32,000 nucleotides of DNA from Vulcanisaeta distributa DSM 14429 (GTDB lineage Archaea; Thermoproteota; Thermoprotei; Thermoproteales; Thermocladiaceae), in contig NC_014537.1 in NCBI RefSeq assembly GCF_000148385.1, positions 750,001-782,000 of the forward strand, written 5' to 3'. How positions within the stretch are numbered: position 1 is the first letter of the stretch; each line of letters opens with the position of its first letter. Shown here in pieces: positions 1-8,644 of this stretch. The notes beneath the pieces were generated by a model, which was given only the letters and a program-made list of their open reading frames with translations, did no database searches and was not told the DNA's origin. A program made the translations under genes and the position numbers.

Positions 1-12
1 TCCAGGCGTACC

Positions 13-327
13 TTGATGAGCTCAGTAACGCCGAGTAAGTGGCTTGCGGCCCTTGGCATCATAGCCGTGCTAATACTCGTATTATTCATAATGGGATTCT
101 GGTACGCAGTCTACACACCTGGCGTTGTCTCAACGTGTGCCGGTCCGTTTACAATGATGGAGATCCTAACCCTAATACTGGCGGTTGCTGGTACTTACCT
201 GCTAATGAATTACCTGGGCAGGGGTAGTGTTAGTGACCTGCTACTGGTGGTTTTTGTTGCTGTTCTCGTGATCTTTACAGTGAGCTTCTACTTACTATCC
301 ATCTCATCGTATGGTGGCATATGCTAG
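13..327 (+). CDS. small hydrophobic membrane protein (hypothetical)
   Basis: 104-aa ORF with several long hydrophobic stretches (LAALGIIAVLILVLFIMGFWYAV, ILTLILAVAGTYLL, LLLVVFVAVLVIFTVSFYLL). No family motif recognised. Confidence 0.4.
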   Translation: MMSSVTPSKWLAALGIIAVLILVLFIMGFWYAVYTPGVVSTCAGPFTMMEILTLILAVAGTYLLMNYLGRGSVSDLLLVVFVAVLVIFTVSFYLLSISSYGGIC

Positions 328-373
328 GTGATTAAATCTTTAAAGAGTGCAGGTTATCTGTCGTTTTGCCGCT

Positions 374-790
374 ATGGATTGCGTGTTCTGTAAGATCGTT
401 AAGGGGGAGGAACCTGCCTATGTAGTTTATGAAGATGAACACGTAATTGCAATACTCGATAAATACCCAATAAGTAAAGGGCACACGCTGGTTATGCCGA
501 AGAGACATTATAGGGATATAACGGAAATACCAAGTGACGAATTATGCCATGTAATTAGGGTGACGAAGGCCGTGACAATGGCCGTGATTAAGGCATTGAA
601 CGTGCCTGGTGTGAGGATTATTCAGAACAATGGCGCCGAGGCTGGTCAGGTAATTTTCCACATACACTTCCATGTAATACCAATGACCGGACGCATTACC
701 GGTAGGCATTACTTAACCGAGGAGGAGGGTCGTGAAGTATCTGAACTATTATCTAAGGCCGTTAAAGAAGTACTTAGTAGTATGAGTTAA
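374..790 (+). CDS. HIT (histidine triad) family hydrolase
   Basis: Histidine triad HIHFHVIP, plus an N-terminal CVFCKI and DKYPISKGHTLVMPKRH typical of Hint-like proteins. Track ORF starts at 347. I prefer ATG 374 (MDCVFCK) because a TATA-like CTTTAAAG lies about 33 nt upstream. Confidence 0.85.
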   Translation: MDCVFCKIVKGEEPAYVVYEDEHVIAILDKYPISKGHTLVMPKRHYRDITEIPSDELCHVIRVTKAVTMAVIKALNVPGVRIIQNNGAEAGQVIFHIHFHVIPMTGRITGRHYLTEEEGREVSELLSKAVKEVLSSMS

Positions 791-823
791 CTTTTTTATA
801 CACTACTCACATTATTATTCCTA

Positions 824-1123
824 ATGGAGGTATTTGGTTTAACACTAACGCAGATAATCAGTATAATAGGCCTATTCGTGCTTGGGCTACTCGTGGGTAT
901 CCTGATAAGGAGGTTGATAGGAGTTGCCCTGGTATTACTGGCGATTGTAATTCTTGCAATAGCCCTGGGCTACCTAAGCCCATCAACCCTAGTCACACTA
1001 CTTCATTACGCAGGCTATGCGATGAGCGTAGCCTATGCGAAGGCCCAACAATTCATTGGCGCCATCCCATACTCATCACTGGCATTTATAATAGGCCTCA
1101 TCATCGGTCTAATAAAGGGCTAG
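824..1123 (+). CDS. small membrane protein (hypothetical)
   Basis: 99-aa ORF that is almost entirely hydrophobic helices (IISIIGLFVLGLLVGILI, VALVLLAIVILAIALGYL, LAFIIGLIIGLI). Confidence 0.45.
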   Translation: MEVFGLTLTQIISIIGLFVLGLLVGILIRRLIGVALVLLAIVILAIALGYLSPSTLVTLLHYAGYAMSVAYAKAQQFIGAIPYSSLAFIIGLIIGLIKG

Positions 1124-2226
1124 TTAAGGTAAGCAACCCTCAGGTTCGACCGATATAGGAAGTCGAGGAATGAATCAAAGGCCCTATTTAGGGATTGAGG
1201 CTTATAGACCATCGCCTCATTACCGCTTATGAATACGAATCCCGTGCGCGGTGGCACATCATTAATGTGCTCCCTCATTATGTCGACAAACTCCTCACTA
1301 GGTCTTTGCATTATTACGATAACCCTATCCTCACGTGGATGGTAGTCTAAGACCCTCCTACTCGGTACAATCCACGGGTAAAGCATGATTAACTCCCTAC
1401 CACCCTCACCAAACACTGTATAAACAATACCACACCTAGCAACCCTGCTGTAGGTGTATTGACCGTGTGGACTTATGATCCTCCTCATGGACCTGGCACT
1501 GGAGTCCTTCATCTCGTGAATCACCATTCTAAGCTCCCGCAGGTCAATGGCTGGGTTAAGTATCAACTCGCCAATAGAGCCATCAAGTACATTGCCAATC
1601 CTCACCTTAACCACGAACTCCCTAAAATCAACCCCATAAATCGCCCTAAACAACCAATTAATGGGCCTTGAACCGAAGGCTGCCGACTCAACGGCAACCA
1701 ACCCAAGTGCATCTAGAGCACTTATTAATTCCCTAACGTTAGGTGTTGGTATGTCACCGGACATCTCAAGAAGTCTAGGTATTAGGTACTCAGGAACGAA
1801 GAGGATGCCCCTCCTCCTATGCATTAGAACACCAGCCCTTATTAACTCAGTAAGTACATCCTCATTAAAGCCCATAAGCCTGAATTGAACCTTAAGGACA
1901 CCCTCATCACCCCCAAGCCCCATGTACTTAATCAATGCATATACAGCATCACCAAAACCCTTAACTCTACTCATTGAGTGATCAGCTAATAATCCATAGA
2001 ACCTCCTAATCCTATTACTAGCGTCCTCTCCAAGTGATGAGACAAACTCCCTAGCCCTCTCCAGGACTTCCATGTACCTATCTCCATACCTCAAATTGAA
2101 GTCCTGAGTCAACGCCTCCTCATCCTCATCATCATAATTAATCAGTTGGTATGCTCCCTCCAGTACGTCAATACTCAACGGCTCACTCACATTAATCATT
2201 AAGACTATAGGTTTTAAATAGCGCAT
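1120..2226 (-). CDS. hypothetical protein, function unknown
   Basis: Long ORF (track 1120..2277, 385 aa) with ordinary composition. I prefer Met at 2226 (or 2199), because the upstream codons would run over the moeA start and the TATA-like box at 2214-2222. No catalytic or nucleotide-binding motif recognised. Its stop overlaps the stop of the 824..1123 ORF (CTAG). Confidence 0.55.
   Translation of the reverse strand: MRYLKPIVLMINVSEPLSIDVLEGAYQLINYDDEDEEALTQDFNLRYGDRYMEVLERAREFVSSLGEDASNRIRRFYGLLADHSMSRVKGFGDAVYALIKYMGLGGDEGVLKVQFRLMGFNEDVLTELIRAGVLMHRRRGILFVPEYLIPRLLEMSGDIPTPNVRELISALDALGLVAVESAAFGSRPINWLFRAIYGVDFREFVVKVRIGNVLDGSIGELILNPAIDLRELRMVIHEMKDSSARSMRRIISPHGQYTYSRVARCGIVYTVFGEGGRELIMLYPWIVPSRRVLDYHPREDRVIVIMQRPSEEFVDIMREHINDVPPRTGFVFISGNEAMVYKPQSLNRAFDSFLDFLYRSNLRVAYLN
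2214..2222. promoter_or_regulatory. TATA-like box (TTTTAAATA) in the divergent moeA / 1120-2226 intergenic region
   Basis: AT-rich near-palindromic box centred about 24 nt upstream of the moeA GTG at 2242. The spacing fits a crenarchaeal leaderless promoter. Confidence 0.45.
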
Positions 2227-2241
2227 TGTCCCTAAAATCAC

Positions 2242-3510
2242 GTGAAGCCTCACGAATACAAGTTCGTAGTGCCTCACGAGCTTGAAGAACTAATTAATGC
2301 AATAAGTACGTTAGCTGTGGTTGATGAGGAGAAAATACCTGTATGGGAATCAATGGGTAGGGTTCTGTCAAGGGACGTGGTTGTACCCATGGACATACCG
2401 CCACGACCTAAGGCGGCTTATGATGGTTACGCGGTTAGGAGCCAGGACATTACCAGGGTACCCACCAAGTTGAGGTTAGTGGGTTCAATAAGTATTGGCG
2501 AGGTCCCAAGTATTAAGGTTGGCCCCATGGAGACTGCCTACGTAACAACCGGCGCATACCTACCGGACGGCGCTGATGCCGTTGTCCCTGAGGAATTTGT
2601 CGAGGTCATGGGCAATAACGAGGTCATCATTAACAAGTCGGTCATGCCCTGGGAGAATGTGGATCCAGCAGGTGACTTCGCCAAAAAGGGTGAGGTGGCT
2701 CTTAGGGAGGGCACGGTTATAATGCCCTGGGACATACCGGCACTGCTGGAGCTTGGTATTGGTGAGGTTTGGGTTAGGAGGAGGGTCAAGATATTCGTGG
2801 TCGCCACGGGCTCAGAACTCGTGGAGGTTAAGACGCCCGATGAGGTGCCTAACGCAATAATTAATGGTAAGGTTGTTGAGAGCACAGCGTCCTTAGTAAG
2901 GAATTACATAGGCATGTATGTACCGTATGCGGAGGTTGTTGGTAGAACCATAGTGCCCGATAATCAGGAGGCCATTAAAAACGCAGTAATGAATGCCCTG
3001 AATCTCGCAGACATCGTAATAACCACCGGCGGTACGGGACCTAGCGGTGTTGATTATGTGTATGAGGTGACGAAGTCCCTAAACCCAAGGACCTACATCA
3101 GGGGGCTAAGGATGAGGCCCGGTAGACCAACGGGCTTGGCGGTATTAAGTAATAACAAGGTCGTTATTAATCTGTCGGGGCACCCAATATCTGCCTTGAA
3201 TGCCATGACCGTGATCGTTAAGGAGGTCATTAAGAGGCTTGCGGGTGTTAAGGTGGATATTGCGGAGCCAAGGGTAATGGCTAAACTAGCCAGGGGCACG
3301 TTGGGAGATGAGGAGTTCGCGAGGCAGTACAGGGTTAGGGTTAGGAGGGTTGGTAATGACTACGTCATTGAGGAATTACCTAGGCAGGGTAGCTCACTAA
3401 CCCACACCTTATTAACGGTTAATGGGTTGGTATTCACGAGGAAGGGGCAAATAATTAGGGAGGGTGATTACGTGGAGGTGCTGCTCCTTAGGGAACCTCC
3501 TCGTGAATGA
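2242..3510 (+). CDS. moeA: molybdopterin molybdenumtransferase MoeA
   Basis: 422 aa with MoeA-type architecture. Shows the MoCF-biosynthesis domain motif ITTGGTGPSGVDYV, plus MRPGRPTGLAVL and LSGHPISALN. Confidence 0.85.
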   Translation: MKPHEYKFVVPHELEELINAISTLAVVDEEKIPVWESMGRVLSRDVVVPMDIPPRPKAAYDGYAVRSQDITRVPTKLRLVGSISIGEVPSIKVGPMETAYVTTGAYLPDGADAVVPEEFVEVMGNNEVIINKSVMPWENVDPAGDFAKKGEVALREGTVIMPWDIPALLELGIGEVWVRRRVKIFVVATGSELVEVKTPDEVPNAIINGKVVESTASLVRNYIGMYVPYAEVVGRTIVPDNQEAIKNAVMNALNLADIVITTGGTGPSGVDYVYEVTKSLNPRTYIRGLRMRPGRPTGLAVLSNNKVVINLSGHPISALNAMTVIVKEVIKRLAGVKVDIAEPRVMAKLARGTLGDEEFARQYRVRVRRVGNDYVIEELPRQGSSLTHTLLTVNGLVFTRKGQIIREGDYVEVLLLREPPRE

Positions 3511-4853: not shown

Positions 4854-6350
4854 CTAAGTATCGCTTAATTTATCTAACCATCTCCTTGCTAATGACCTTA
4901 TTCTCTCACTTTTTTCGGGATTATTCATAGTCTGTTTCAGCCATTCAACTATCTTACTAAGTATATAATTGTGCTTTTTAATTGTGCTCCAGGGTATGTA
5001 TATTTCCGGAACATTGTTATTGTTTCGTCGCTTAAACTCTATACCGTGCTTATTCAATGTACTTATTAACTCATCTATGTTGCAGCCCTTTCCGCACCAT
5101 GTCCTTAGTTGTATTGTCTTGTCTGTTAATAATACGTTGAATTTAATTCCGTAAATTTCTATTTGAGATGAACCGTGCCTATGTCCAATGCTTATATTAG
5201 CCAATGCCCTCAGCCTACCCCATTTATCAAGGCCTAGTTGCTCCTCAAGCAGATTAAGTATGCGCCTTAATTTATCTGGTAAATTATTAATTATGTATCT
5301 GGTTAGAGTCACGGCATTACTGTTCCAGAGCATTAGTTCAGCCCCATTATCTTTTATGGATATTCTACGATTAATCCCTAACTGTGTCATTAATCCTATT
5401 AAGGCTTTATCTAATTTTTCGTAATTGCTCAATCCCGCACTTATTTTAATATTCTTTTTCCTTAAGTCTACGCTACCATCACTAAGTATTAGCGTAAGTA
5501 AGCTTAATGGTGTGGGATTCTTTTTCAATTCCTTAAATGCCTCATACTTACTTCTAATAGTTTCCCTGTGAGAGTCAGAGTATATGAACCATGTAATGCT
5601 AATGCCCTTTCTCGTAAATCCTAGACTTCTTATCGCCACTTTATCCCTACCAGGGTATAATAATATCCAAAATACTAATTGCCATATCTGTCTCGTTTTC
5701 ATTGCAGGCCTTCCCCTATATATTGTCCCATCACCTGCTCTAAGGCCAAGCTTTAAATTATGTAATTCATACTCACTTAAATTTAGTAAGTCTGGTACTT
5801 CTAACGTTTCTGTGGCCAAATTCCTTAAATATACTTGAGAAGTTATTGACTTTCTATTCTTCTTAATCTCAATTTCTATTGATACTAGTCTTCCATGTAT
5901 TTTAAGAAATAAGCTACCATACTTACCATTAACTACGTAGATCTTTCTCTTACCCATGAACGCGTCTTTAATCGTATTGTTAGCATCATTAATGTAAATA
6001 TTTATCCATTTTTCCTTAACTTCATTTATTAAATGAATTAACTTTTCAATGTTAAATGAAATAATATTTTGTGTATTATCATTAGCAACTATTAAATTAT
6101 TTAAACTTTTAACGAAATTCCTGAGTTTATTTACCGCATTCTCGGCTACCTCATTTATATCATAATCATTGATGCGCCTATGAACCTCAATTAATGCATT
6201 AAATATAGACTGCTTAATATCATTATCAGTTATCTCGTCTATTACTTGACAACCCCGCCTCTTCCTACACCTAGCCCAAACCACGTCAATACTCGTATAC
6301 ATAATTTGCATAGACGGTACAATTGCTTCATTGGAATTCTCGCTGGGCAT
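4854..6350 (-). CDS. AT-rich 498-aa protein with two LAGLIDADG-like motifs (putative homing-endonuclease-related, selfish or foreign gene)
   Basis: Long uninterrupted ORF in very AT-rich DNA; sampled 60-nt lines give about 18-28% G+C. Motif 1 is LKLGLRAGDGTIY (about aa 199-211) and motif 2 is LLTLILSDGSVDL (about aa 284-296), spaced about 85 aa apart. Each is followed by a pattern seen in LAGLIDADG domains (ISAGLSNYEKLDKALIGLMTQLGINRRISI; AELMLWNSNAVTLTRYIINNL, cf. I-DmoI RLRIWNKNKALLEIVSRWLNNLG). The N-terminal about 190 aa and C-terminal about 110 aa are unassigned. Confidence 0.45.
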   Translation of the reverse strand: MPSENSNEAIVPSMQIMYTSIDVVWARCRKRRGCQVIDEITDNDIKQSIFNALIEVHRRINDYDINEVAENAVNKLRNFVKSLNNLIVANDNTQNIISFNIEKLIHLINEVKEKWINIYINDANNTIKDAFMGKRKIYVVNGKYGSLFLKIHGRLVSIEIEIKKNRKSITSQVYLRNLATETLEVPDLLNLSEYELHNLKLGLRAGDGTIYRGRPAMKTRQIWQLVFWILLYPGRDKVAIRSLGFTRKGISITWFIYSDSHRETIRSKYEAFKELKKNPTPLSLLTLILSDGSVDLRKKNIKISAGLSNYEKLDKALIGLMTQLGINRRISIKDNGAELMLWNSNAVTLTRYIINNLPDKLRRILNLLEEQLGLDKWGRLRALANISIGHRHGSSQIEIYGIKFNVLLTDKTIQLRTWCGKGCNIDELISTLNKHGIEFKRRNNNNVPEIYIPWSTIKKHNYILSKIVEWLKQTMNNPEKSERIRSLARRWLDKLSDT

Positions 6351-6490
6351 GGTTTTGTTGTGGTTTTGGGTTTATTATTTTTCGTGGTTATTTTTGTTTA
6401 GTTGGGTTTTGTGAAAGTTTTGTTGTGGGGGTGTAGGGAGAAAGGAAGAGAGAGTGAGTTGTTTTTGAGTTGTTTTGATGGGTTGTTGGT
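6351..6490 (+). repeat. low-complexity G/T-rich, virtually C-free tract (A/C-rich on the minus, sense strand)
   Basis: I count a single C in 6351-6480. On the minus strand, AAAAATAATAAA sits about 26 nt upstream of the ATG at 6350, a TATA-like position. Confidence 0.8.
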
Positions 6491-6682
6491 TTATACGATT
6501 ATGTTTCCTTGTTCGTCTACTTTTGCTATTACTTTTCTTACTGTTTTTCCGTCTGGTGTCTTGAACAGGGCCATTACGAAGCCCTTCCTACCCTTAGGCT
6601 GAACCTTCCAAACCTTCGTAGGCTTAAGCTTCTTGCCCTCTATTTCGTATTCCCTCTTTGCCAGGTCTTCTAGTGTGACCAT
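6491..6682 (-). CDS. cren7: chromatin protein Cren7
   Basis: 63 aa. [34 protein letters not shown] aligns by eye with Sulfolobus Cren7 ([35 protein letters not shown]), including the PKGRKG core. Confidence 0.85.
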
Positions 6683-6834: not shown

Positions 6835-6910
6835 AGCCGGGTCGTCTAGCGGCCAAGGATGGCGGGCTCTGGACCCGTTGACCCCGGTTCGAATCCGGGC
6901 CCGGCTACCA
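6835..6910 (+). tRNA. tRNA-Gln (anticodon CTG), CCA encoded
   Basis: Hand-folded. Acceptor AGCCGGG/CCCGGCT (A1:U72), D stem GTCT/GGAT, anticodon stem GCGGG/CCCGT with loop CTCTGGA, T arm CCCGG-TTCGAAT-CCGGG, discriminator A plus CCA. 76 nt, no intron. Confidence 0.9.
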
Positions 6911-7164
6911 CTCTGTTCTTTAATTCTTTTGTGAATGTGATATGGAGGGTTTGCTTTGTCGTGTTACGGCTTATTTGGATTAATGAGTTGGTTTTGGTTA
7001 GGATTTTTGAGATTGGTTTATGTAATGGAATTATTGAGGTCATTGCTGGTATTGATTCTTGATTGTGGCTTGGTTTTAGGATTACGTGGATTCCTCGTCA
7101 TGTAGATGATTAGCTGTGGTGCGTTTTTAATGCCCTGTAGGTAATGCGTTGCTCTGGGTGCTTT

Positions 7165-7185
7165 GGGCATTACTGAATCCCCCGG
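7165..7185 (+). repeat. possible further-decayed att-like copy (gggcatta-c-tgaatcc-cccgg)
   Basis: Shares gggcatta, then tgaatcc, then cccgg, in the same order as 8596-8638 (gggcatta...tgaatccgggcccgg). It lies 20 nt from the stop of the PIN-like gene. The match is short and gapped, so weak. Confidence 0.3.
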
Positions 7186-7205
7186 TGTGGAGGGTTATGT
7201 TTATG

Positions 7206-7871
7206 TTACTTATTGTCTCTAGGGCCTATATTCGTTAGTTGTTCCTTGAATTCCCTGTAATTTAGGGTGATTATTTTATTTGCGCAGGGGCATTTATTGC
7301 ATGCTAGATGCCCTTCAACGAAGTCCCTGAGGTTTTTGTCCTCTGTAATGAAGATCAATTTACCGCTTGTTATACCGGGGCCTTTCCTTCTTGGTACTGT
7401 GGCCAATAAGTCGTAGGCGTAAAGTAATGAGTTTACTATATCTATGTCCTCACTTGGGATTTTACTTAATAATTGGTCCATGATCTCGTTCTTCCAGCAA
7501 ACTCTTCTTTTAGGTCTATACCTTAGGGCCTCCCTCTGTATTTTTAATGATTCGTCGTCCTCGATTATCCTTATGTATCCTTTGCTTACCATATCATTTA
7601 ATTGATTAATACAGTATTGTTCCATTACGTTAACCTCAACATTATGCCATCCATGCTTCGCCCTATCAACGTTACTTAATAGATTGTGCAGGGCCACGTT
7701 TTTGAGCTCACGTATTATGGCACTATCAGTGTAAATAACTAAAGTTCTATTCTCCAGTAAATCCAGGATCTTTATTTTTGGTTTGTTTAACTTACGGTGT
7801 AGGGTCATTGTGTATATTATTTTAACGAGTACATTAGTATCAACAAAAATATGAAATGCCTCAAATACCAT
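7206..7871 (-). CDS. PIN-like domain protein with large insertion and C-terminal Cys cluster (putative toxin/nuclease)
   Basis: N-terminal IFVDTNVLV (D11). Candidate acidic residues are E55 (IRELKN), D142/D144 (EDIDIV) and D178 in LIFITEDKNLRDF, matching the D-E-D-D order of PIN domains. There is an insert of about 85 aa between E and the third D. C-terminal HLACNKCPCANK. Starts 11 nt after the upstream gene. Confidence 0.5.
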   Translation of the reverse strand: MVFEAFHIFVDTNVLVKIIYTMTLHRKLNKPKIKILDLLENRTLVIYTDSAIIRELKNVALHNLLSNVDRAKHGWHNVEVNVMEQYCINQLNDMVSKGYIRIIEDDESLKIQREALRYRPKRRVCWKNEIMDQLLSKIPSEDIDIVNSLLYAYDLLATVPRRKGPGITSGKLIFITEDKNLRDFVEGHLACNKCPCANKIITLNYREFKEQLTNIGPRDNK

Positions 7872-7882
7872 GGATTATCCAC

Positions 7883-8473
7883 CTACTTAAATAGGTCCGG
7901 GTAAAGCTCCTCCTCATTGACTGACTCCCTGCTCTCAAGAATTTCTTTGAGTTTTTTGGCAGCGTCTATGTATGTGTCTAGGCTCATGTTGAACGCCAGC
8001 GCCTTAATGACTTCGCTTTTTATGCCGAGTACCTCAAGTGAATGAGCTACTATATCGCCTTCCCTTAACCTGCCATAGATGTCGATGATCCTCATTGCGT
8101 AATCCGCTAGGTCTTTCAGTCCCCTTTTCTCAAGGGCCCTGTAGGAATCTTCGAAATCCTTATTTATGTCTTTAACGTAATAACTATCGCCAGTCTTCAC
8201 TATGTCATACTTGCTCATTTCAGACTCACCACCGAGTAACCTATCAATTGGTATGAATGGTCCCTTTAGGTATATCCTGAATTCCTCAGGCAACCTAGCC
8301 CTTGGTGAATCAAGGAGTTTTGTACCATCGGCATCCGTGTACAGGATAAGGAATAGTAGTTTAACAAGCACCTCTGTGCTGATACCTCTACCGTACTTCC
8401 TGATGTAGTATGCAATAACAAGCCTAACCAGGTCAATGGCTGGTTCCCGCAATAATTCCTTAACAAGACTCAT
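7883..8473 (-). CDS. Panacea / DUF4065 (SocA/GepA-like) domain protein (putative antitoxin)
   Basis: IDLVRLVIAYYIRKYGRGISTEVLVKLLFLILYTD ... FRIYLKGPFIP resembles the DUF4065 pattern (a..yil...g.it..kLqKLlY.a ... f.aw.yGPv). Lies immediately upstream of, and is probably co-transcribed with, the PIN-like gene. Confidence 0.5.
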   Translation of the reverse strand: MSLVKELLREPAIDLVRLVIAYYIRKYGRGISTEVLVKLLFLILYTDADGTKLLDSPRARLPEEFRIYLKGPFIPIDRLLGGESEMSKYDIVKTGDSYYVKDINKDFEDSYRALEKRGLKDLADYAMRIIDIYGRLREGDIVAHSLEVLGIKSEVIKALAFNMSLDTYIDAAKKLKEILESRESVNEEELYPDLFK

Positions 8474-8610
8474 AACTAATAGTTATTTCTAAGGTAAGTT
8501 TTTTAACCCTGACCCCGTGACTGCCATCATTAATAAATGAAGAAGCAGGTACATTATTTTAATTGATTATGCGGCATGGGCCCTGATTAGTTAATGGGCA
8601 TTAAGAACTT

Positions 8611-8644
8611 CGTTGGTTCAATTTGAATCCGGGCCCGGTTACTA
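8611..8644 (+). repeat. degenerate direct copy of the 3' half of tRNA-Gln (att-like remnant)
   Basis: cgttggttcaatttgaatccgggcccggttacta. The last 21 nt match the tRNA 3' end cgaatccgggcccggctacca at 18/21, including the exact 14-mer gaatccgggcccgg. All 3 mismatches are C to T in this copy. The leading cgttg matches tRNA 6876-6880. Confidence 0.75.

Follow-up and report, generated by a model that had tools for sequence, protein, structure and literature searches.

A Panacea-like and PIN-like gene pair in a tRNA-Gln islet of Vulcanisaeta distributa, a candidate toxin–antitoxin module

A two-gene islet next to tRNA-Gln

The 32,000-nt stretch of the Vulcanisaeta distributa DSM 14429 chromosome analysed here (the window, to which coordinates refer unless another locus is named) contains two small minus-strand genes, denoted P1 and P2, which we consider a candidate toxin–antitoxin (TA) module. 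P1 (7883..8473), the upstream gene in the list of open reading frames (ORFs), encodes a Panacea-like protein of 196 aa, the putative antitoxin or sensor, and is followed, after a spacer of 11 nt (7872-7882), by P2 (7206..7871), the product of which, 221 aa in length, is probably a PIN-like metallonuclease and the putative toxin. A first-pass annotation of this DNA had reported two co-oriented genes 11 nt apart, and this description proved accurate: the strings that it quoted (ISTEVLVKLLFLILYTD and YLKGPFIP for P1; IFVDTNVLV, LIFITEDKNLRDF and CNKCPC for P2) are all present in the translations, and its numbering of D11, E55, D142, D144 and D178 in P2 is correct by count. A collection of 5.8 billion proteins holds a 100% entry for the window P2 and none for the window P1, which was probably missed as a gene call in the source annotation.

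A Shine-Dalgarno (SD)-like AGGTGGA, read from the sequence at 7878..7884 (minus strand), shares nucleotides with the P1 stop codon and precedes the P2 ATG by 7 nt. This putative SD site is consistent with P2 being translated as the second cistron of an operon; in crenarchaeal operons, SD motifs of the GGTG type are used for internal genes. A TATA-like TTAAAAAA box, likewise read from the sequence (8499..8506, minus strand), is centred ∼29 nt upstream of the P1 ATG and, as a presumptive promoter, would yield a leaderless or nearly leaderless P1–P2 transcript.

On the other side of the pair, 296 bp from the 3′ end of P2 and facing it with its own 3′ end, ARAGORN places a tRNA-Gln(CTG) gene (6835..6910, plus strand), which constitutes the attL-side repeat. 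The attR-like repeat, a direct but incomplete and decayed copy of the 3′ portion of this tRNA gene, occupies 8596..8644 (∼49 nt, plus strand), 149 bp upstream of the P1 start. The 3′ end of tRNA-Gln (6888-6908) is identical to 8622-8642 at 19 of 21 positions, with no such matches expected by chance (100 shuffles), and the att-bracketed islet of the first-pass annotation is therefore upheld. The islet interior of ∼1.7 kb (6911..8621) is occupied by P2 and P1 alone, no further ORF in it having homologues, and the G+C content of the islet is 0.39-0.40, compared to 0.45-0.50 in the flanks.

The same tRNA-Gln layout and repeat pair are found in Vulcanisaeta souniana. In Thermocladium, two independent assemblies carry a perfect 46-nt copy of positions 32-77 of tRNA-Trp ∼110 bp upstream of P1 and the intact tRNA-Trp gene ∼195 bp downstream of P2, with an interior of 1,546 bp and housekeeping genes outside. 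The islet geometry is always the same, namely, a partial tRNA copy, P1, P2 and a tRNA gene on the opposite strand, separated by spacers of 110-300 bp. At the DNA level, the Vulcanisaeta and Thermocladium islets are homologous only over the genes and a promoter region of ∼60 bp; the homology begins ∼59 bp upstream of P1 and so takes in the TATA-like box. In Vulcanisaeta sp. JCM 14467, a tRNA-His gene lies within ∼70 bp of a P2 remnant. A search for att-like repeats flanking the pair found none in JCM 14467, Thermoproteus, Pyrobaculum or Pyrodictiaceae. Neither an ORF scan of the islets nor a tblastn search of the window and the other islets, with the SSV-type integrase of locus L031 as the sole probe, detected an integrase or a fragment thereof, and the IMG/VR viral contigs contain no relatives of P1 or P2. 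The integrase used as the probe (PF16795; L031 5290-6213) is itself encoded 1.1 kb downstream of a distant pair. In Thermoproteus, a borderline Rfam tRNA match (L009 8381-8450 and L013 8364-8433; 29.4 bits, cut-off 29), missed by ARAGORN, is located ∼1.1 kb downstream of the P2 homologue, past an ORF-free stretch, and may be a tRNA that is degraded or interrupted by an intron and that marks a further insertion site.

The simplest reading of these islets is that the pair was cargo of related tRNA-targeting integrative elements and is now what remains of them, because the preferred targets of archaeal integrases are the 3′ portions of tRNA genes, and related enzymes diversify over many tRNAs (PMC8371274, PMC7253208, PMC5704250). 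As in tRNA-integrated archaeal elements, among which related elements target different tRNAs, the islet repeats derive from the 3′ part of the tRNA gene, from the anticodon loop to the 3′ end. The islets also resemble the cis-mobilizable elements (CIMEs) of bacteria, which are att-flanked and integrase-less (PMC8371274, PMC7253208, PMC5704250). However, the islets differ from both in that they span just 1.6-1.7 kb, consist of a two-gene module alone and yielded no integrase fragment in the searches above.

Family relationships of the two proteins

P1 has no match among the models of Pfam, NCBIfam, PADLOC or PHROGs, even at E ≤ 10. A word-indexed search gave 20 homologues, and the profile of the P1 family (A1), run exhaustively against 1.84 billion representative proteins, retrieved only 28 clusters. 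Among the weakest matches of this profile (E 9.6e-4, 1.84e9 proteins) is P0052, which scores 31.6 bits on PF13274 (SocA_Panacea), over the gathering threshold of 25.7 bits, and hence is a certified Panacea member; P0047, retrieved at E 1e-5, has a sub-threshold Panacea match of its own. When A1 was aligned with the P0052/P0053 family (A3) using hhalign, the probability was 96.6% (E 5e-10, 137 columns). The alignment pairs LVKLLFLILYT with LMKLLFLVDYD and FRIYLKGPF with WIIYLWGPF, so that the motifs KLLFL..Y and YL.GPF agree. An intermediate family (A4) is linked to A1 at 99.0% and to A3 at 97.6%. Judged by these alignments, P1 is a genuine but remote relative of the Panacea superfamily, outside Pfam's own threshold.

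The DUF4065/Panacea assignment made in the first-pass annotation is thus sustained as a remote homology, but not by the HMMER check against Pfam: none of the 18 family members scanned singly, P1 and 17 relatives, matched PF13274. Besides this null result, it speaks against the assignment that the link depends on shallow profiles and a single bridging family that comprises two sequences. The reference in the profile–profile test remained shallow because a homology search around P0052, made for a deeper DUF4065 reference set, returned two sequences only and a protein-level search of phage and plasmid collections for DUF4065 reference proteins returned none.

The AlphaFold2 model of P1 (predicted local distance difference test [pLDDT] score 89.6) shows a globular helical domain with a β-hairpin at RIYLKGPF (residues 66-73) and an additional small inserted hairpin, placed at about residues 83-100 or, by the model, at 91-100. 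The predicted helices and hairpin resemble the published Panacea architecture, which consists of helices α1-α7 and a β1-β2 hairpin (Ernits et al., 2023, PMC10440598). Comparison of the model with PDB structures gave no match, and a sequence/profile search of the PDB with the P1 alignment gave nothing meaningful. The best matches in the viral library BFVD reached probabilities of 1.00 and 0.93, with template modelling (TM) scores up to 0.64, the entries being unnamed and thus uninformative as to family. Relatives of P1 have weak winged-helix matches around the inserted hairpin; a DNA-binding domain of the AbrB, RHH, PHD or HTH type was not matched in P1 in the Pfam scan of singly searched family members. 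The C-terminal tail of P1 (residues 181-196, window positions 7883-7930, ...EELYPDLFK) is almost invariant, and its modelling confidence is low (pLDDT 55-58). The tail is retained also in a clade of homologues without P2, described below, and may have a role beyond P2 binding.

For P2, the strongest argument for a PIN-like protein is residue conservation. In an alignment of 10 P2-superfamily sequences, with identities as low as 14%, neither D11 nor D142 varies and D178 is nearly invariant, and within the eight-member P2 family, E55, D154 and T176 are invariant as well, T176 being part of a T176-x-D178 motif. The acidic residues stand in PIN order relative to the predicted strands, that is, after β1, at α3, before β4 and, in the form of T/S-x-D, after β4. 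The order of the predicted secondary structure elements (β-α-α-β-α-α-β-α...α-β-α-β-α) is compatible with the α/β/α PIN fold, with extra helical segments between the conserved motifs. In a Foldseek search with the P2 model, the top five matches were all PIN-like minimal RNase P proteins (HARP/PRORP; 8kda, 7e8o, 7og5), followed by Exo1 and Utp24.

The PIN assignment of the first-pass annotation is accordingly supported at D11, D142 and D178, but not at the level of family profiles. The best Pfam match of P2, to PIN_3, is sub-threshold (18.5 bits, E 0.0036, cut-off 27) and covers only residues 8-67 at the N-terminus, and no profile of the PIN clan CL0280 matched P2 significantly. The PIN_3 match recurs, again below threshold, in 6 of the 10 superfamily members (best E 0.0016), and single members match PIN_12, PIN_2 or PIN at sub-threshold levels, PF01850 once at E 0.56; these weak matches are counted in favour of a PIN link. 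Constructs with the predicted insertions deleted, tried as a way to a full-length PIN_3 alignment, fared no better and were outscored by a shuffled control (21.9 bits). Alignment of the P2 family with a verified VapC (Shigella, 3TND) yielded an hhalign probability of 0.3%, PDB profile searches with the P2 alignments were empty, NCBIfam gave nothing significant for P2, and PADLOC and PHROGs gave nothing for either protein. The AlphaFold2 model of P2 has a pLDDT of 65.9 overall and is poor in the C-terminal half, and the Foldseek matches are all non-significant (E ≥0.09, with 0.09-0.27 for HARP/PRORP; probability ≤0.69). Taken together, P2 is probably PIN-like, with a presumptive PIN fold and nuclease activity.

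The CNKCPC cluster, which the first-pass annotation had singled out as atypical of VapC, is indeed present, but it is specific to the Thermoproteales clade rather than a feature of the family. The cysteines concerned (C125, C191, C194 and C196) are missing in distant homologues, which rules out the cluster as a family-defining Zn site.

Co-inheritance of the pair and asymmetric loss of P2

P1 followed by an intact P2 homologue was identified in V. souniana, Thermocladium, Thermoproteus, two metagenomic lineages and a Pyrodictiaceae metagenome-assembled genome (MAG), in which the identity has fallen to 32% for P1 and 25% for P2; the adjacency also holds in Pyrobaculum, where P2 is frameshifted. 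Furthermore, three distant Panacea-like proteins from archaeal MAGs (P0035, P0045 and P0046) are followed by downstream genes with the same P2 motifs. In most loci, the two genes are tightly spaced or overlapping. Nonsynonymous divergence (dN) of P1 and P2 increases in step (0.03/0.06, 0.23/0.23, 0.34/0.43 and 0.66/0.92, respectively), and the ratio of nonsynonymous to synonymous divergence (dN/dS) relative to V. souniana is 0.18 for P1 and 0.17 for P2. Given these low ratios and the presence of homologues in several archaeal genera, P1 and P2 are more than chance ORFs; they form a conserved, co-inherited and co-diverging operon under purifying selection. The gene-neighbourhood survey proposed in the first-pass annotation thus had a clear outcome, with homologues of both genes co-occurring as a conserved pair in many archaea.

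The association is not universal. P1 homologues of one clade (44-49% identity) keep the conserved tail and have no P2 beside them, indicating that P1-like proteins can act alone or with other partners. In this clade (L005/L006 and L014-L025, metagenomic contigs), the conserved cluster around the gene encodes a T2SSE-type ATPase, proline-rich proteins that are secreted or membrane-bound, and a ParA-like protein (phrog_164), and it may be a plasmid-like or integrated element with an orphan Panacea-like gene.

Other neighbours vary from locus to locus. In Pyrobaculum, a pair of HEPN and nucleotidyltransferase (MNT) genes is located directly upstream of P1–P2 (L001 4331-4827), and in L039, type III-B CRISPR Cmr/RAMP genes precede the pair (1-3246). 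In the Pyrodictiaceae MAG, the interval from the P2 homologue to a tRNA-Asn gene contains three tandem paralogues of ∼150-176 aa (repeat families D1-D3; L010 8079-9463).

Decay of the pair is markedly one-sided. P2 is broken next to an intact P1 in five lineages, although some of the apparent frameshifts in MAGs are possibly assembly errors. In Pyrobaculum and in L039, P2 is frameshifted; in Vulcanisaeta sp. JCM 14467, it is interrupted by a ∼2-kb TnpB-carrying insertion in three independent assemblies; in two MAGs, a distant P2-like gene is split identically, at a run of seven A, into ORFs of 109 aa and 120 aa (L031 3503-4175 and L032 3153-3825); and at the P0027 locus, P2 is truncated at the C-terminus. 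Both genes have decayed in L021. No credible case of a broken P1 with an intact P2 was encountered among the loci examined. The one candidate, P0007 in L038, was rejected, given that this draft assembly also splits a neighbouring MFS gene and that a second V. souniana assembly has an intact P1. Recurrent inactivation of P2 only is the pattern expected if P2 is a toxin and P1 its antitoxin. The insertion in JCM 14467 (L002 5912-7921; also in L003, L004 and L007) encodes a 373-aa TnpB-like protein (Cas12f1-like_TNB); a second ORF within it, of 130 aa, is weakly STIV_B116-like.

Candidate functions and genomic surroundings

We favour, with moderate confidence, the reading that P1–P2 is a bicistronic type II TA-like module of the PanAT kind. 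In PanAT systems, Panacea/DUF4065 proteins (PF13274) are coupled to toxins of variable fold, including validated nucleases, and the systems are patchily distributed, mobile and found in archaea (PMC8832971, PMC10440598); stand-alone Panacea can act as the antitoxin and neutralize the toxin directly (Kurata et al., 2022, PMC8832971; Ernits et al., 2023, PMC10440598). In the proposed mechanism, a single P1–P2 transcript would start a few nucleotides before the P1 ATG, from a promoter upstream of P1 at the TATA-like box, with P1 leaderless and P2 translated from the SD-like site. Free P2 would act as a metal-dependent PIN-like nuclease, most likely an RNase directed at tRNA, rRNA or mRNA, and would block translation and arrest growth, unless bound and neutralized directly by P1 through its globular domain or the conserved, putatively disordered C-terminal tail. 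The module would have arrived as cargo of tRNA-targeting integrative elements and persisted as the sole content of the 1.7-kb remnant at tRNA-Gln by resisting loss of its carrier DNA, and it may also act in defence. Besides the one-sided loss of P2, the mobile and defence context, including the att repeats at tRNA-Gln and tRNA-Trp, the adjoining tRNA-His and the SSV-type integrase, HEPN-MNT and Cmr neighbours, is counted in favour of the TA reading.

Several observations weigh against it. The shortfalls of both family assignments set out above apply here in full, as do the P2-less clade of P1 homologues and the doubtful MAG frameshifts. In addition, the toxicity of P2, its neutralization by P1 and the role of the pair in keeping the remnant in place are inferred.

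Like PanAT, the pair is a two-gene module of a Panacea-type protein and a partner, with the P1 family linked by profile to a PF13274 member. It differs from PanAT in that P1 and all its 17 relatives fail the Pfam model, in the inserted hairpin and the conserved acidic/aromatic tail of P1, in the origin of P2 from a previously unclassified PIN-like family, and in being the sole cargo of att-bracketed islets. VapBC systems, which are abundant in thermophilic archaea, share with P1–P2 the antitoxin-then-toxin order and tight spacing, and P2 has the D...E...D...T-x-D pattern with DTN as the first motif. By contrast, P2 is larger than VapC (221 aa versus ∼130 aa) and shows no detectable similarity to a verified VapC, and P1 lacks a VapB-type DNA-binding domain. 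A further comparison is with SocAB. SocA hands SocB to ClpXP, which archaea are not known to possess, and P2 has no relationship to SocB; P1 is thus more likely to bind P2 directly than to follow a SocA-type mechanism. The likeness between the two systems lies in the antitoxin, SocA being the DUF4065 proteolytic adaptor of the type VI TA system SocAB and a member of the Panacea superfamily (PMC8832971, PMC10440598).

The first-pass annotation had regarded the combination as undescribed, a claim that is only partly checkable. Panacea proteins paired with nuclease toxins have been published, whereas crenarchaeal DUF4065 entries are listed in the published PanAT survey as 'no_PanT', without a predicted toxin partner, and the survey text consulted names no Panacea–PIN pair. 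Both components fall outside curated family thresholds and the putative P2 toxin family is new, but the PanAT concept is already known. If the TA reading is correct, the Panacea superfamily would extend into a clade of hyperthermophilic Thermoproteota that is invisible to the Pfam model, and an insertion-bearing PIN-like toxin family would be newly defined. The islets would then offer an unusually clean natural case of a TA pair as the sole surviving, or sole mobile, content of tRNA-integrated DNA. Such a case would bear on whether chromosomal TA modules persist through stabilization of mobile DNA or through their own selfishness. A thermostable Panacea–toxin pair would also be suited to structural study of Panacea neutralization or sensing. 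No concept would be overturned, as both the hyperpromiscuity of Panacea and its presence in archaea are already known.

Of the alternatives, the one that fares best is abortive infection, in which P1 would sense a virus or plasmid cue and free or activate the P2 nuclease, killing or arresting the cell. Panacea may be mainly a sensor, and TA networks have been tied to phage-defence systems (Ernits et al., 2023, PMC10440598); the HEPN-MNT neighbours in Pyrobaculum, the type III-B Cmr genes in L039, and the patchy distribution and islet location of the pair are in line with this scheme. Nevertheless, no PADLOC model matches P1 or P2 and no viral trigger is known, and because genomic evidence cannot split defence from addiction, and att islets with no other cargo fit selfish persistence at least equally well, we rate abortive infection as an unlikely, if serious, contender.

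Two further explanations take the islets as functional units rather than remnants. In the first, the 1.6-1.7-kb unit of tRNA 3′-half repeat, P1, P2 and tRNA is a minimal non-autonomous mini-island that carries only a TA module, mobilized in trans by archaeal tyrosine integrases or by a part that the pair itself plays in tRNA-gene insertion, and spreading and persisting purely via addiction. This possibility is raised by the finding of one and the same minimal cargo, arranged alike, at tRNA-Gln, at tRNA-Trp and beside tRNA-His, by the short spacers and by the lack of any integrase trace; we hold it to be distinctly less likely than decay of larger elements. In the second, which appears slightly less probable still, the pair is no TA system but an accessory module of tRNA-integrating elements, a nuclease with a DNA-binding partner serving integration, excision, replication or exclusion, and the islets are mini-elements mobilized in trans. 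Here, too, the repeated islet organization with the pair as sole cargo can be invoked, as can the weak winged-helix matches in P1 relatives and the integrase 1.1 kb from the L031 pair. However, no tRNA occurs within 5 kb of the pair in Pyrobaculum and at several MAG loci, the IMG/VR viral contigs contain neither gene, and different tRNAs would require different attP sequences. Moreover, frequent loss of P2 with retention of P1 is not expected of a mobility function, and remnants of related elements suffice as an explanation, since related archaeal integrases diversify over tRNA targets.

Far less probable is a housekeeping role for P2 in tRNA processing, whether as a minimal protein-only RNase P of the HARP type or as a different nuclease, with P1 as its partner or chaperone. 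The structural comparison does lead there, given that HARP/PRORP proteins are the best, albeit weak, matches of the P2 model, have a PIN-like core with inserted helices and are of similar length (188-199 aa versus 221 aa). Yet these matches are non-significant, with no sequence-level counterpart, as none of the P2-family members matches the PIN_5/HARP models of Pfam. Unlike a housekeeping enzyme, P2 is an accessory gene, missing from most relatives, repeatedly pseudogenized and borne by a foreign low-GC islet. Least probable of all, and already strongly disfavoured, is that two unrelated hypothetical genes are mere neighbours in a decaying remnant: neither protein is significant in any curated family library, but their adjacency, held down to 24-32% identity and beyond, their co-divergence, purifying selection and tight spacing or overlap argue otherwise.

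Adjoining the islet on the tRNA-Gln side, the window contains the gene for Cren7 (6491-6682, minus strand), beyond which lies a 498-aa ORF (4854-6350, minus strand) with a weak LAGLIDADG_3 match (E 0.0047), in a stretch of 33-35% G+C that forms part of a low-GC segment at ∼5000-6500. The corresponding position in V. souniana, between Cren7 and the shared genes for 171-aa, 100-aa and MoeA proteins, is occupied by entirely different small genes; this region is a second variable insertion, probably of foreign origin, directly next to the islet.

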